The notes under the pieces were generated by a model, which saw only the letters and a program-made list of their open reading frames with translations, was not told where the DNA came from and searched no databases. Positions 3,298 to 19,371 of a stretch of 31,661 bases of DNA are shown in pieces; positions within the stretch are counted from its first letter, which is position 1, and every line of letters starts with the position of its first letter. Position numbers and translations under genes: made by a program. The DNA is from an uncultured Candidatus Saccharibacteria bacterium (GTDB taxonomy: Bacteria > Patescibacteriota > Minisyncoccia > Phycocordibacterales > CSBR16-119), in NCBI GenBank assembly GCA_964550665.1, contig CAZJZW010000002.1, positions 1 through 31,661 on the forward strand, written 5' to 3'.

Positions 3298-4744
3298 TGC
3301 TTTTAATTTTATAATGTTTATATAAAATCCAAAAGATGAGTGTATAAATAATCAAAACTAAAAATATTGAGAAGCTTCTCACTTCTATAGATGAAAAAGA
3401 TAGCGCCGAAAAGGTTTTAACAATAAATATTTCAAATTTTAAAAGCAGGTTTGAAATAAAACCAAAAGGCATCGCCAAAGTTTCTGATAAAAGACCAATA
3501 ATTCCAGTAATGAAACCAAAAAACATTGTCGTCGGAATAAGTGGTAAGACAATAAGGTTCGTAATCGGCGCGATAAGAGAAAGTGTCCCCATTTTATACA
3601 AAATAAAAGGAAGAACAAAAATCTGGGTAGCGATCGTCGCCGAAGCTATCTCGCGAAGTCCAGCTTTTTTCGGAAGCCACATAAAATATTTTTCAAACAA
3701 CGGAGAAAGATAGATAAGACCGATGGTTGCCAAGAAAGAAAGTTGGAAAGAAAGATCAAAATAAAGAATATATGGATTTTGCAAGACCATTAAAAATCCG
3801 GCGATACAAAGCGCTCTTGATATATTGAATGCGTTACCTGTTGCCCGAGCAATGAGCGCTAATATCGCCATCACGCTCGCCCGAAAGATCGTAGCCCCTG
3901 CTCCAGTCATCAGCGCAAAAAAGACTATTGAAAATGATCCGACTGTAATACCGAGCGTCAGGGGTAAAAAAGATAAAAATCTCATGATCGCTTCAGCAAT
4001 AATCGTCACGTTATACCCGGACAAAACAACAATATGAACAAGTCCGGTATCGACGAAATTTTGTTGCAACTCCTGACCCAAGGATTGTTTCGTCCCAAGT
4101 AAAAGTCCTCCCAAGAGTGAACTTTGTGGTGGAGGAATAACAGATTCTATAGTTTCAAGAAACTTATTTTTTGTTTTTAGTAAAAAATTTATAAAAGTAT
4201 TTCCATGAGAAGAAGAAACAAAAGAAACTTTAGCAAAGGATATAGTGTAGTAGATACTATCTTTTGATAAATAATGAATGTAATCAAATTCTTTACCAAT
4301 ATCTGTTTTAAAGTTTTCTGGTTTTTGCAGTGTTCCAGAAACTTGGAGTAAATCTCCGTAAGTAAATTCTGGATAGAGCTCCGTACTAACCAAAACCCGA
4401 ACATTTTCAAATCCAACCACAAGTCTTTGACTGTTCTCTCTTCTGTCAGGTTCACGTAACACAACTCCTTCAAAAGAAATTTCCTGCTGAACCAAGTCGT
4501 CAAAAACATTTTTCGGCTCACGCACATCTTTATAGTGATAACGAAATATCCCGAGCAAAATACAAATGAGAGAAATAGAAATAAATAAGATATTTTTATT
4601 TTTTATAAACAAAAAACCAAGAAGTAAAATAAAAGAAACGATTCCAAATATCCAAAAATACAATGTTGGTACAAACAAAAACGAGCGCATAAAAACGCCC
4701 GCTAAAAAAGAGAAGATGCTTATAAAAATAATTTTATCCCTCAT
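3281..4744 (-). CDS. comEC: Competence protein ComEC, membrane domain (DUF4131/OB plus Competence domain)
   Basis: GLVHIVVLSGYN, FRASVMA and DLSFQLSFLAT motifs; many TM helices. Confidence 0.93.
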   Translation of the reverse strand: MRDKIIFISIFSFLAGVFMRSFLFVPTLYFWIFGIVSFILLLGFLFIKNKNILFISISLICILLGIFRYHYKDVREPKNVFDDLVQQEISFEGVVLREPDRRENSQRLVVGFENVRVLVSTELYPEFTYGDLLQVSGTLQKPENFKTDIGKEFDYIHYLSKDSIYYTISFAKVSFVSSSHGNTFINFLLKTKNKFLETIESVIPPPQSSLLGGLLLGTKQSLGQELQQNFVDTGLVHIVVLSGYNVTIIAEAIMRFLSFLPLTLGITVGSFSIVFFALMTGAGATIFRASVMAILALIARATGNAFNISRALCIAGFLMVLQNPYILYFDLSFQLSFLATIGLIYLSPLFEKYFMWLPKKAGLREIASATIATQIFVLPFILYKMGTLSLIAPITNLIVLPLIPTTMFFGFITGIIGLLSETLAMPFGFISNLLLKFEIFIVKTFSALSFSSIEVRSFSIFLVLIIYTLIFWILYKHYKIKSSGERS

Positions 4745-4749
4745 GTTTA

Positions 4750-5457
4750 TTAACTAATCCATTCTTTGATAGTTTTTTCTTCGTCTTCTTTTGAAAGTGT
4801 TTTCTTGAATCGTGCTTTTTTACCTTTCACCCTAGCTTCACATTCGCCCCACGTTGCGTGTTTTTCTACTTTTCCATCGATCATACTTATGTACGAATAT
4901 GCTTTAGCACTTGATTTAGACTTGGCTTTTTGTAAATAAGCTTCTTCGTTTTTACTCATATCTAAAAGATTTACAGAATAATCTTTTAAATCTCCTTTAA
5001 ATAGAGGGATTTCTTTTCCACGAGCAAAAGAATTGGCGATCACATCAACTCGTTCATTCCCTGCGATACCAACATGACCTTCAACATGTTTCCATTCGAT
5101 CTCTTTATCTTTTGTTACATTAATCAATTTTTGCCATAGGTCTTTATTTAAAACATCTGTTTTATTTTTTGTTTTCCAATCGTTTTTCTCCCATCCAAAC
5201 ACCCACTGTGTAATTCCGGTGATGGTGTACTTTGAGTCAGAATAAACGGTAATAAGCCCATCTGGAGCATTTTCCAGAGCTTTTATGATAGCCATCATTT
5301 CCATCCGATTGTTTGTTGTCTTATCCTCTTTCCCAGCAAGTTCAATAACTTTTTTTGAAGTCTCATCGAAAACGACGGCTCCCCAACCACCAGGACCAGG
5401 ATTACCTATCGCTCCACCATCGGTAAATATTTTTATCTCTTGTATATTTTGTGACAT
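4750..5457 (-). CDS. rnhA: Ribonuclease HI with a C-terminal viroplasmin/hybrid-binding-like domain
   Basis: IFTDGGAIGNPGPGGWG, TNNRMEM, SDSKY, NKDLWQKL and HVEGHVGIAGNERVD; start at MSQNI, 7 nt after TACAAT. Confidence 0.93.
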   Translation of the reverse strand: MSQNIQEIKIFTDGGAIGNPGPGGWGAVVFDETSKKVIELAGKEDKTTNNRMEMMAIIKALENAPDGLITVYSDSKYTITGITQWVFGWEKNDWKTKNKTDVLNKDLWQKLINVTKDKEIEWKHVEGHVGIAGNERVDVIANSFARGKEIPLFKGDLKDYSVNLLDMSKNEEAYLQKAKSKSSAKAYSYISMIDGKVEKHATWGECEARVKGKKARFKKTLSKEDEEKTIKEWIS

Positions 5458-9151: not shown

Positions 9152-9202
9152 TTATAAAAACTCTACAAAATATACATTTATTTGCAAAAAACCGCAAACT
9201 TG

Positions 9203-9274
9203 TCCCCTCGGCAGGAATCGAACCTACATCGAGACCTTAGAAGAGTCCTGTTCTATCCATTGAACTACGAGGGG
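9203..9274 (-). tRNA. tRNA-Arg(TCT)
   Basis: CCCCTCG/CGAGGGG acceptor stem, anticodon loop CTTCTAA, T loop TTCGATT. Confidence 0.93.
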
Positions 9275-13805: not shown

Positions 13806-14018
13806 TATTCCGGTAGGAATCGAACAAGAAGGGGGTCGGGGAAACATTTGTTTCCCCGTAGAGGAAAACAGTGAGCTTTGCTCGTGTTAGAAACCGTGGG
13901 TTTCTAAATAGCAAGCTTCGCTTGCGAGTAAGATAGCCTGCCTGCCGGTAGGCAGGCGAAGCGTCCTACCGGGAGCACAGATGAATGAACGAAATGAGAG
14001 GCGATTCCTATCGGAATA
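13806..14018. mobile_element. tRNA-Arg-associated hairpin-rich element bounded by copies of the tRNA T-arm/3' end
   Basis: Inverted T-arm copy at 13810-13825, direct 3'-end copy at 13964-13979, degenerate third copy at 14002-14018, and four internal hairpins. Confidence 0.6.
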
Positions 14019-17278: not shown

Positions 17279-17449
17279 ATGATGGTAGATGTTTTAAAAT
17301 GGTTTCTGATTATGTTCTTCGGACTTTTTATTCTTTGGGTTATCACAGGGGGTCCAGAGCGAGGTGGCGGAACAACTCCGATTATCTCTGCTCCGACAGG
17401 AATAGGTAGTCCAGGGTTTATACCACAATCAAATCCTTCGGGAAACTAA
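17279..17449 (+). CDS. Small single-TM protein (56 aa)
   Basis: Manual translation MMVDVLKWFLIMFFGLFILWVITGGPERGGGTTPIISAPTGIGSPGFIPQSNPSGN*; exactly fills the gap between mutM and the TrmH gene. Confidence 0.65.
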   Translation: MMVDVLKWFLIMFFGLFILWVITGGPERGGGTTPIISAPTGIGSPGFIPQSNPSGN

Positions 17450-17919
17450 ATATTTAAAATTCGAAAAAGTGCGACACCAGTTGCCACAGAAATATTTAAA
17501 GATTCTTTCTTCCCTTTCATTGGTATTTCCGCCACAACGTCAGAGAGCTCTAACATTTCTTTCTCTACTCCCATAACTTCGTTTCCTACGATAAAAACAT
17601 TTTTCCCCCCTATCACAACCTTTTTATAGTCGACAGAATTTTCTGTTTGTTCGATAGAAATGATTTTAAAATTTTCTTCTTTAAGTTTTTTTAAAGTCTC
17701 TATTATATTTTCTGAGAATTCCCAAGCGATAGATTCTTCGGCGCCAAGAGCTGACTTGGCAATATCACCTCTCTTTCTTCCAAAGCGATCCGTGGGCATC
17801 GGTGAGTAACCAGATAAAAATATTTTTGAAATTCCACACGCGTCAGCCGTACGAAAAATAGCTCCGACGTTTTGAGCGCTTCGGATGTCATGAAGAATTA
17901 AAATATTTTCTGTTTTCAT
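17446..17919 (-). CDS. TrmH/SpoU (SPOUT) family RNA methyltransferase
   Basis: LHDIRSAQNVGAIFRTADACG, IVGNEVMGV and IPMKGKKESLNISVATG. Confidence 0.93.
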   Translation of the reverse strand: MKTENILILHDIRSAQNVGAIFRTADACGISKIFLSGYSPMPTDRFGRKRGDIAKSALGAEESIAWEFSENIIETLKKLKEENFKIISIEQTENSVDYKKVVIGGKNVFIVGNEVMGVEKEMLELSDVVAEIPMKGKKESLNISVATGVALFRILNI

Positions 17920-18014
17920 TAGAAGCATATTACACCAATTGACCAAAAGATAAAAGTTGTGTATATTCGTATAGTATTTTTAATCTCTTATTTGAGATTT
18001 TAAAGTATCCTCTT

Positions 18015-18059
18015 CCGCCGACGCATCTGCTCTGGCGAGACAGGCTCCGCTCAGTGCGG
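18015..18059. repeat. GC-rich REP-like sequence upstream of tRNA-Lys
   Basis: ccgccgacgcatctgctctggcgagacagg...; shares cgcatctgc and ggcgagacagg with the insertion in the RluA gene (1314-1359). Confidence 0.55.
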
Positions 18060-18070
18060 TGAAAAAACAT

Positions 18071-18143
18071 CCTCTCGTAGCTCAGTTGGTAGAGCAGCTC
18101 CCTTTTAAGGAGACGGTCGTTGGTTCAATTCCAACCGAGGGGA
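18071..18143 (+). tRNA. tRNA-Lys(TTT)
   Basis: CCTCTCG/CGAGGGG acceptor stem, D arm AGCTCAGTTGGTAGAGC, anticodon loop CTTTTAA, T loop TTCAATT. Confidence 0.95.
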
Positions 18144-18144
18144 C

Positions 18145-18188
18145 AATAAGAAAAATCTCTGACTTTTTAGTTAGAGATTTTTCTTATT
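18145..18188 (+). terminator. 19-bp stem hairpin after tRNA-Lys
   Basis: aataagaaaaatctctgac-ttttta-gttagagatttttcttatt. Confidence 0.75.
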
Positions 18189-18193
18189 GATTT

Positions 18194-18293
18194 CCGAGGG
18201 AGGAATTGAACCGAAGGCGCCCATTTTTAAAGAGTGAAGCGATTATAAAAATGGAGCGTTTCGACCAAAGGGAGAGGCGATTCCAACCGAGGG
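18194..18293. mobile_element. tRNA-Lys-associated element bounded by copies of the tRNA T-arm/3' end
   Basis: Inverted ggaattgaacc at 18202-18212; direct attccaaccgaggg at 18280-18293 (equals tRNA 18128-18141). Confidence 0.55.
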
Positions 18294-18389
18294 TATAAAA
18301 ATTATAGATTTTTGTGAGATTTATTTTTCTTGCCAAACACCTCTAAAAAACATAAAATTAAGAAATTAGCAGGTAATCTTAAATATTAA

Positions 18390-18842
18390 ATGAACAAACA
18401 AACATTGATTTCAGTAATCGTTATCTCCGTAGCAGCAATCATCGGACTTGTTATCTTGCAACAATCAAGTAACAAGGAGGCTGGTAAACCAGGACAATAC
18501 AACTCCCTAGCAACATGTCTTGGAGAAGCAGGTGCAAAGTTCTATGGTGCATTTTGGTGTCCACATTGTAATAACCAAAAGAAAGCTTTTGGAAAATCGA
18601 GTGAATTACTTCCTTATGTAGAATGTTCTACTCCAGATGGAAAAGGTCAAACACAAGTTTGTTTAGACAACCAAATCCAAAGTTACCCGACATGGATCTT
18701 TGCTGACGGAACACGACTTACAGGGGAACAAACACCACAAGCTCTCGCAGAGAAAACAGCTTGTGAGGCAACATTACCTGCAAACCCAACAGAGGAAGTT
18801 GACCTAGAAAAAAATACATCTTCAGAGGCACCCCTAAGTTAA
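18390..18842 (+). CDS. Membrane-anchored thioredoxin-fold disulfide oxidoreductase (VKOR-partner type)
   Basis: N-terminal TM segment, GAKFYGAFWCPHC, LPYVEC and IQSYPTW (cis-Pro). Confidence 0.88.
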   Translation: MNKQTLISVIVISVAAIIGLVILQQSSNKEAGKPGQYNSLATCLGEAGAKFYGAFWCPHCNNQKKAFGKSSELLPYVECSTPDGKGQTQVCLDNQIQSYPTWIFADGTRLTGEQTPQALAEKTACEATLPANPTEEVDLEKNTSSEAPLS

Positions 18843-18843
18843 T

Positions 18844-19371
18844 ATGGAAAATCTAGCAAATACAACAAATATTTTACTCAGTATTGGTACACTATTTATT
18901 CAAATCGTTTCTGTTTTGCTCTTAGTAATGATTTTTACTAAAGATAAAGGGCCTTTGGCAAAATGGTTTAGTGATAAGTCTTTGTTTTTGGTCTTTATAG
19001 TAATGGCTGGATCAATGGTGGCAAGCTTATTCTATTCTGAAGTTATCGGCTATCTACCATGTCTTATGTGTTGGTATCAAAGAATCGCAATCTACTCTTT
19101 GGCAATAATATCTTTTGTGGCTATCGTTAAAAAAACAAGCCAAGATGTTTGGAAATATATAAGTACATTGGCTTTCCTCGGTGCTATAGTTGCCGCTTTC
19201 CACGTGTTCTCACGAACAACAAATAGTGAGATCTTTGACTGCTCTGCTGTCGGCCCATCTTGTCTTCAAGAACTATTTACGAAGTTTGGATACATTGATA
19301 TTCCAGTAATGTCCCTGACAGCTCTCATCTTCGTACTCCTTATCGTGGTAAACAGAAAAAGATTTAACTAA
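18844..19371 (+). CDS. DsbB/BdbC-family disulfide bond formation protein
   Basis: SLFYSEVIGYLPCLMCWYQRIAIY, second Cys pair CSAVGPSC, FGYIDIPVMSL; multiple TM helices. Confidence 0.9.
   Translation: MENLANTTNILLSIGTLFIQIVSVLLLVMIFTKDKGPLAKWFSDKSLFLVFIVMAGSMVASLFYSEVIGYLPCLMCWYQRIAIYSLAIISFVAIVKKTSQDVWKYISTLAFLGAIVAAFHVFSRTTNSEIFDCSAVGPSCLQELFTKFGYIDIPVMSLTALIFVLLIVVNRKRFN

Follow-up and report, generated by a model that had tools for sequence, protein, structure and literature searches.

What kind of sequence is the stretch of about 150 bases that lies directly behind a tRNA-Lys(UUU) gene and carries pieces of this gene in both orientations? The DNA analysed here, hereafter the window, is one entire 31.7-kb contig of the genome studied (G000; assembly of 593,508 bp, ~0.59 Mb, 37% G+C, 92.9% complete), which holds 34 tRNA genes and a tmRNA gene. 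The comparison set comprised 61 genomes of the same order, with labels including Parcubacteria, Paceibacteria, Nomurabacteria, Yonathbacteria and similar groups, which makes G000 a member of the ultra-small CPR (Patescibacteria) bacteria; G003, G004 and G005 are congeners of G000, and G009 belongs to another genus. An earlier note on this DNA had described two like elements, one behind tRNA-Lys and one behind tRNA-Arg(GCG), as members of one family with a constant end joined to bases copied from the adjacent tRNA.

The tRNA-Lys gene is contiguous and uninterrupted by the element, and the genes near it are all ordinary (SpoU methylase, thioredoxin-like protein, DsbB). The element (18144-18293) lies on the same strand as its tRNA; the inserted unit begins right behind the gene, its antisense copy of the T-arm, which we call the guide, follows 58 nt downstream, and an ORF search found no reading frame inside. 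It is thus a gene-less, hairpin-forming insertion of ~150 bases with antisense and sense copies of the tRNA-Lys end (Table 1).

Table 1. Features of the window at the tRNA-Arg(TCT), tRNA-Arg(GCG) and tRNA-Lys(UUU) loci
Feature	Position	Strand	Basis or detail
tRNA-Arg(TCT), empty site for type B	9202-9274	-	compared with G003, G005 and G004
Nested type C element	13810-13995	+	guide 13810-13825; core to 13963
Type C end: sense copy of tRNA positions 59-73, then displaced native flank	13964-13978; 13979-13995	+	
Type B relic at tRNA-Arg(GCG): GAGAGG and 13-nt copy of tRNA positions 56-68	13996-14014	+	one mismatch
tRNA-Lys(UUU), intact host gene	18071-18144	+	ARAGORN; Rfam tRNA, 66.2 bits
T-arm target of tRNA-Lys(UUU)	18122-18132	+	C56 = 18126
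Spacer: AT-rich 21-bp hairpin right behind the tRNA, within the inserted unit	18144-18189	+	DNA fold
CCGAGGG, 7 nt of the acceptor 3' strand in sense orientation, immediately 5' of the guide	18194-18200	+	sequence reading
Guide GGAATTGAACC, antisense copy of tRNA positions 52-62	18202-18212	+	11/11 nt, exact reverse complement of 18122-18132
Type B core helix P2, long AU-rich hairpin with tip GA-GY-GAA-GC-GA	18217-18259	+	consensus fold, n = 7 copies
Internal stem, 9 pairs	18220-18229 / 18246-18255	+	
Reduced P3 region (UUC...GAG), closing with constant GAGAGG (18272-18277)	18260-18277	+	
Sense copy, tRNA positions 56-71	18278-18293	+	15/16 matching, G at position 57

All parts that the earlier note had read at this locus are borne out to the base. 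The inverted T-loop copy that it placed at 18202-18212 agrees, as a reverse complement, with every base of tRNA positions 52-62, its internal stem is present with nine pairs, and its 14-bp direct copy of the Lys 3' end (ATTCCAACCGAGGG, 18280-18293) equals tRNA positions 58-71. When one mismatch is allowed (G for A57), this sense copy begins at C56, i.e. at 18278. The guide fits A57 of the G000 tRNA-Lys and the downstream sense copy retains G; since the relatives carry G57, A57 is the derived base. Bases 18202-18208 of the guide form the 5' strand of the helix P1 and bases 18278-18284 of the sense copy its 3' strand. In the predicted folds, the partner of the guide is either the sense copy, over 7 bp, or the T-arm of the tRNA itself, over 11-12 bp, and the element folds more stably than shuffled sequences, both alone (z = -3.6) and with the 3' part of the tRNA added (z = -8.0). 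The hairpin that the note had called terminator-like does exist, with 21 AT-rich pairs at 18144-18189, and may act as a terminator; a simple terminator scan makes no call there. Homologous spacers are present at the Lys loci of G001 and G005, where CCGAAGG stands at the position equivalent to CCGAGGG, a heptamer that may be the remnant of an older copy. At the position of the reduced P3, G009 holds a real hairpin. The element gave no match to the covariance model of type A, the commonest core type (see below), at E up to 0.01, and therefore represents a separate core type; it is a reduced, short member of type B within a family of patescibacterial tRNA 3'-end modules.

The case for a family had been built on a junction of 13 bp identical at the two loci, and GAGAGGCGATTCC is indeed found at 18272-18284 and at 13996-14008. 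The string GAGAGGCGATTC occurs twice genome-wide, each time behind a tRNA, and a 12-mer search of the 593,508-bp assembly returned exactly two matches even with one mismatch, its reversed control none. The genome search for the junction that the note had proposed as a check thus places both matches behind tRNAs; with only two of them, the real scale becomes visible through the architecture. Moreover, the ATTCC within the junction is common to both loci only because both tRNAs have such a T-arm. Nor are the two elements alike, as had been supposed: of a type B element, the tRNA-Arg(GCG) locus keeps GAGAGG and the copy only, and most of the presumed Arg element is an unrelated core, type C, which shares 83% mean column identity with elements behind the tRNA-Lys of G001 and G005. 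In G003, the sequence behind the orthologous tRNA-Arg(GCG) consists of the native flank, then a complete type B element and then the sense copy; the displaced flank of the window (13979-13995) matches the G003 sequence behind its tRNA. In the window, the order behind the gene is a new spacer, the guide, the type C core, the copy of tRNA positions 59-73, the native flank, and finally GAGAGG with the type B copy. This layout therefore means that the type C element entered between the tRNA body and the old 3' end, and that most of the type B element was lost later.

Throughout G000 the modules have one layout: immediately behind the 3' end of a tRNA or tmRNA gene, on its strand, come an antisense guide (T-loop plus T-stem), a folded core and a sense copy from C56. 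They accompany ~12 of the 34 tRNA genes and the tmRNA gene, with at least four core types. Scanning the flanks of all 34 tRNA genes revealed a downstream direct copy, an inverted copy or, usually, both at 10 of them, and a model search added two more tRNA ends and the tmRNA gene; the earlier note was right that coincidence is unlikely. The inverted T-loop copies lie 40-80 nt downstream of the tRNA, and the direct copies are mostly 13-19 nt long, 136-185 nt downstream, and start at C56. Among the exceptions, Ser-GGA has an inverted copy only, and tRNA-Pro(UGG) (contig C1:~120-210, minus strand) has an exact 34-nt copy of positions 41-74 at +59 and no inverted copy. This tRNA-Pro repeat starts in the anticodon-stem/variable region and is therefore another kind of module or attachment site.

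Type A, the commonest type, has a conserved core of 105-145 nt at six of these ten loci, and folds as a three-helix junction in which P1 is formed by guide and sense copy while P2 and P3 are hairpins. Compensatory changes affect 20 of its 28 predicted pairs, and junction bases such as GAAAG are conserved. Its covariance model finds nine copies in G000, one of them behind the tmRNA gene, and copies in 54 of the 61 genomes of the order (1-22 per genome); outside the order, 7 of the 150 genomes of a phylum-wide sample carry it. Over 44 copies, the share of paired cells is 96.9%; shuffling lowers it to 76.6% and sliding the partners to 43.5% or less. Both sides have changed in 197 cells. G-U pairs outnumber A-C pairs (35 versus 11), and the tRNA-sense strand is therefore the folding strand. 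The fetched loci contain 155 type A copies, of which 96 have a tRNA or tmRNA gene on the same strand at most 120 nt upstream and 19 stand in tandem behind another copy; the hosts cover about 30 anticodons. About half of the type A copies also carry P0, a conserved 9-bp hairpin just 5' of the guide, and in 24 of 43 P0 copies it is preceded by a second guide that can pair with the 3' strand of the acceptor, so that no part of the sense copy need stay unpaired. Near-identical cores are found across different families of the order, and with ~93% identity, against 73-77% for the flanking genes, the cores change more slowly than their surroundings.

The type A copy behind the tmRNA gene of G000 (C17:10594-10714) starts ~75 nt behind the gene and its arms match the tRNA-like 3' end; five more tmRNA-associated cases were seen in other genomes. 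Two type A copies (L129:1784-1917 and L084:1730-1862, the latter on the minus strand) have neither a tRNA nor an Rfam RNA upstream. Both follow a common conserved unit of ~95 nt with its own hairpin terminator, which may be a small RNA gene serving as target.

Type B, to which the Lys element belongs, was found in nine copies, behind tRNAs for Lys, Arg-GCG, Arg-TCT and Val, in G000, G003, G004, G005 and G009. The closest relatives, at 88-93% identity, stand behind tRNA-Arg(GCG) and Arg(TCT) in G003 and behind Arg(TCT) in G005 and G004; in G009, the copies follow Arg(TCT), Arg(GCG), Val(UAC) and Lys(UUU). The alignment gives a single order, namely guide, AACC, long AU-rich hairpin, small or reduced third helix, GAGAGG, and then the neighbouring tRNA from C56. 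The family with a constant end and adjacent-tRNA bases that the earlier note had proposed thus stands, with nine copies, while the constant end itself is GAGAGG (GAGAAG or GAAGAGG in G009) and not GAGAGGCG; the CG after GAGAGG is C56-G57 of the tRNA copy. The bases that follow match the neighbouring tRNA with 0-1 mismatch over 16-22 nt in 8 of the 9 copies, as the note expected, the ninth (G009 Lys) being degenerate in its T-loop part. All nine type B copies share with type A the register of the sense copy, which starts at C56, and the consensus fold (n = 7) is again a three-helix junction like that of type A. In P2, three pairs have changed on both sides between the genera g1 and g3, which amounts to few independent events. 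Note that the weaker matches of the separate type B model that we built are mostly a bare AU-rich hairpin elsewhere.

Two type B cores of G003 (C2:98316-98407 and 102380-102471), 4 kb apart, are 100% identical over 64 nt, with spacers and arms that differ. Their identity points to gene conversion between copies or to a very recent move. The tip of the type B P2 hairpin (window 18232-18244) belongs to a pattern GA-GC-NNN-GC-GA, often GCGAAGC, which is also seen in 55 of 150 type A copies. GCGAAGC forms an unusually stable DNA mini-hairpin, and such tips are a weak hint at single-stranded DNA.

Comparison of orthologous loci shows the family present, absent or replaced among congeners. At tRNA-Arg(TCT), G003, G005 and G004 carry a type B insert of 119 bp with a 22-bp repeat at its borders; the insert is missing in G000, whose tRNA-Arg(TCT) runs directly into the sequence that trails the sense copy in the three others, i.e. 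a clean indel. The comparison of occupied and empty loci across strains that the earlier note had suggested is answered by this site. The tRNA-Lys(UUU) locus is occupied by type B in G000 and G009, by type A in G003 and by type C in G001 and G005. In G000, a type B core is combined there with a spacer and a guide homologous to the ones that belong to the type C elements of G001 and G005 at this locus. Newcomers are inserted behind the tRNA body, ahead of the older 3'-end copy, and push earlier elements downstream; the tRNA stays whole through insertion, replacement and loss at fixed tRNA positions. In a contig of a related strain (run X6), the tRNA, spacer and guide are kept and 18215-18319 (105 nt comprising core, sense copy and flank) is replaced by 19 nt, which is a natural decay of the element by deletion. 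Public contigs covering 17400-19000 contained neither an empty site, nor an excised circle, nor a joint from which the element had been removed; being contigs and not reads, they are silent on excision.

We looked for a protein that could move the modules. G000 has one tyrosine recombinase, Xer-like (Pfam Phage_integrase) and encoded on another contig; a tyrosine recombinase is present in 59 of the 61 genomes, most with exactly one, so its presence is uninformative about the element. The Y1 transposase (PF01797) was not found in the 92.9% complete G000. A reverse transcriptase was rejected as the mover, as it occurs in 22 of the 61 genomes against 54 with elements and does not track them, G053 having 21 copies and no such gene. 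The two reverse transcriptase genes of G000 (C21:1003-2145 and C25:6512-7507, the latter equal to L066:1333-2328 on the minus strand) are, at a guess, of the diversity-generating kind, because an Avd-like gene was noted at the window end. In five element-rich genomes, the spacing of 5' and 3' motifs revealed only ordinary or tandem copies and none with a protein inside. Viral contigs gave four 16-mer matches, none of them an element, and no match to the type B hairpin string. With permissive cut-offs (E up to 10 or 5), Rfam 15 returned only tRNAs and noise for the two loci of the window and for seven other loci. A resemblance of the type A junction to hammerhead or RNase P-like RNAs, considered by eye, was dropped as their consensus sequences did not fit. 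The Lys feature is real and belongs to a widespread, tRNA-matched family, of which full-text searches of the published literature found no description.

We consider it probable, if by no means certain, that 18144-18293 is a non-coding, non-autonomous insertion module of type B that was inserted site-specifically at the T-loop by means of a host enzyme. In the mechanism that we propose, the mobile unit would consist of tRNA positions 56-73, spacer, guide and core, and would enter at the T-loop between U55 and C56, either by a site-specific strand exchange of the Campbell type or by an insertion during which the target, from C56 to the gene end, is duplicated; either route would leave the tRNA intact. 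The pairing of guide and sense copy would rebuild, within one strand, a duplex resembling the 3' end of the tRNA gene, or else the guide might serve in finding the target. The chemistry would be carried out by a host enzyme, the sole tyrosine recombinase of G000 being a candidate, and deletions between repeated guides and copies could give rise to hybrids and relics like those at the two loci of the window. The tRNA-templated copying assumed in the earlier note is not needed, as target duplication on insertion or an attachment-site-like segment of identity explains the direct copy equally well. Fold-back synthesis of the sense copy on the guide was discarded, because type B has no acceptor guide and yet its copy reaches the gene end. 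Likewise, a tendency of the guide to follow the tRNA over the downstream copy (108 versus 28 sites) was set aside, since decay or small indels of the copy give the same result.

The proposed insertion has its weak points. Since two genera carry type B copies at orthologous positions, this type may be ancient and have lost its mobility, and the identical G003 cores with their differing spacers fit gene conversion as well as movement. Colonising ~30 tRNAs demands re-matching both arms each time, which the insertion model leaves unexplained. The T-loop also seems unlike an integron R box or a dif site, GTTCGAA not fitting GTTRRRY, when set against their consensus sequences. A more radical form of the model, in which insertion is guided by nucleic acid without a dedicated protein, the 11-20-nt guide, different for each tRNA, picking the target through base pairing and the folded core either exposing the junction to a housekeeping enzyme or being catalytic itself, is one that we entertain only tentatively. 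If it were true, a change of guide would redirect insertion, and the modules would be a programmable device for integration, made by nature and much smaller than all those known.

Could the modules be working RNAs instead? A transcript, made by read-through or separately, would fold into a tRNA-like minihelix of guide and tRNA 3' copy with two or three hairpins and be processed by tRNA enzymes; whether in cis or in trans, it might serve as a ribozyme, a decoy or a regulator, and the dispersal over tRNA genes would be secondary. Strong covariation, the G-U excess and the conserved junction bases agree with this, as do the P0 copies that mask the entire copy in an acceptor/T-stem-like helix; the slow evolution of the cores relative to neighbouring genes could mean a host-level RNA function, and their strong conservation keeps such a function in play. 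However, the hairpin between tRNA and element, often with a T-run, and the ~10-25 nt left for a promoter speak for a process at the DNA level, at least four unrelated core sequences have the architecture alone in common, the carriers are one third of the tRNA genes in a set that differs between congeners, and no Rfam family matches. We therefore regard a functional RNA as unlikely, though deserving attention. Spread without any enzyme, by homologous recombination of DNA acquired in natural transformation, with the conserved tRNA as left arm and the 18-22-nt sense copy as right arm, would let the cassette enter every genome with this tRNA and would account for tRNA sequence always flanking the insert on both sides, for the clean indel, for near-identical cores in different families of the order and for the failure to find an element-specific protein. 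It leaves the fixed C56 start, the guide, the conserved fold and the moves between different tRNAs unaccounted for, and an 18-nt arm is very short for RecA-type recombination; we think it improbable.

A route through RNA, in which a transcript reaching from the guide to a terminator past the sense copy would be copied by reverse transcription, have its ends joined and then be inserted, is suggested by the Met (G000) and Leu (G007) modules, whose duplication spans C56, the terminator hairpin and the T-run, like a transcript end. Yet the distribution of reverse transcriptases described above does not follow that of the elements, the guides are complementary to the gene flank and not to an added CCA, and a hairpin lies upstream of the element, which makes this route very unlikely. 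We give least credence, and very little, to the idea that the modules are scars of integrase-borne islands or prophages, i.e. attachment-site repeats remaining after internal deletion. Direct repeats of tRNA 3' ends that begin in the T-loop are reportedly the classical signature of integrative elements, as Williams is said to have described in 2002, and to this extent the modules look familiar. But the 60-130-nt cores are repeated hundreds of times, remnants of an integrase are lacking, most genomes have a single Xer-like recombinase, the viral contigs searched contain no copies, the antisense arm has no counterpart in such scars, and no complete element was found in which these arms enclose an integrase.

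Several known systems come close to the modules. Integrative elements of tRNA/tmRNA genes that cross over in the T-loop, and their cis-mobilizable remnants devoid of an integrase (CIMEs), likewise target the 3' half of tRNA genes, rebuild the gene, leave a direct repeat from T-loop to gene end and form tandem or nested arrays; the modules differ from them in being 100-200 bp long with no integrase inside or nearby and no autonomous relative found, and in adding an antisense arm, a covarying fold and arms that differ per tRNA within one core family. With the integron attC sites and the CTX-phage attP(+) hairpin used by XerCD, they have in common arrays of small units; the imperfect inverted repeats of the modules might also fold one strand into a mimic of the target duplex, on which a host or shared recombinase would act. 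Neither IntI nor an R-box or dif-like motif was recognised, however, the modules have no cargo gene or phage genome, their target is the T-arm, and their single-stranded form is putative. IS200/IS605 elements and their protein-less derivatives, the PATEs, recognise targets through a DNA guide; the modules resemble them in small size, many hairpins, the lack of a protein and a short internal stretch complementary to the target. IS200/IS605 elements make no target duplication and use guides of 4-5 nt, whereas the modules have guides of 11-20 nt and a duplication of 18-22 nt, and no Y1 transposase was found in G000. Group I and II introns and the IS110 bridge RNA resemble the modules in that a variable guide beside a conserved fold matches the insertion site; in the modules, however, the tRNA is uninterrupted and needs no splicing, the fold is far smaller, and there is neither an intron-encoded or IS110-type protein nor an Rfam match. 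MITEs and REP-like repeats are short, non-coding, multi-copy and hairpin-forming as well, but the terminal repeats of the modules copy the neighbouring gene instead of being constant, their position is fixed by the tRNA and their duplication is long. Each of the nearest systems (integrative elements, folded attachment sites and IS200/IS605 derivatives) fails at least one of the defining features tested.

If the modules are mobile, they would be the smallest site-specific insertion elements known, abundant in stripped genomes of ~0.6 Mb and with arms matched to their targets, and would raise the questions of which host enzyme acts, whether the guide chooses the target and how it is rewritten for a new tRNA. 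If they are working RNAs instead, a major phylum of bacteria would have a large class of RNAs that is missing from the catalogues. In practical terms, partial tRNA duplicates and repeats of this kind break assemblies and mislead tRNA, attachment-site and island finders in CPR genomes.

Other small repeats were seen at tRNA genes of these genomes. Partial copies of tRNA 5' parts lie upstream of Gln(UUG), Leu(CAA) and Pro(UGG) in G000 (C5:30520-30677, C29:~4980-5030 and C1:285-500, respectively), some with a palindrome inserted in the D-loop; tRNA 5' copies are likewise found upstream of Arg and Val in G009, and a whole pseudo-tRNA-Leu in G007. These copies may be the 5'-side counterpart of the 3' modules. 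A GC-rich palindrome of 20-22 bp, CCTGCCTGCC..GGCAGGCAGG, is present in the type C element of the window (13937-13956) and missing from the G001 and G005 copies. Further sites in G000 are C29:4998-5017, C38:~175-195, C7:~4645-4667 and C19:~140-163, and its settings include the tip of P3 in one type A element and, in the tRNA-Leu 5' pseudo-fragment, the D-loop; it looks like a separate tiny insertion.
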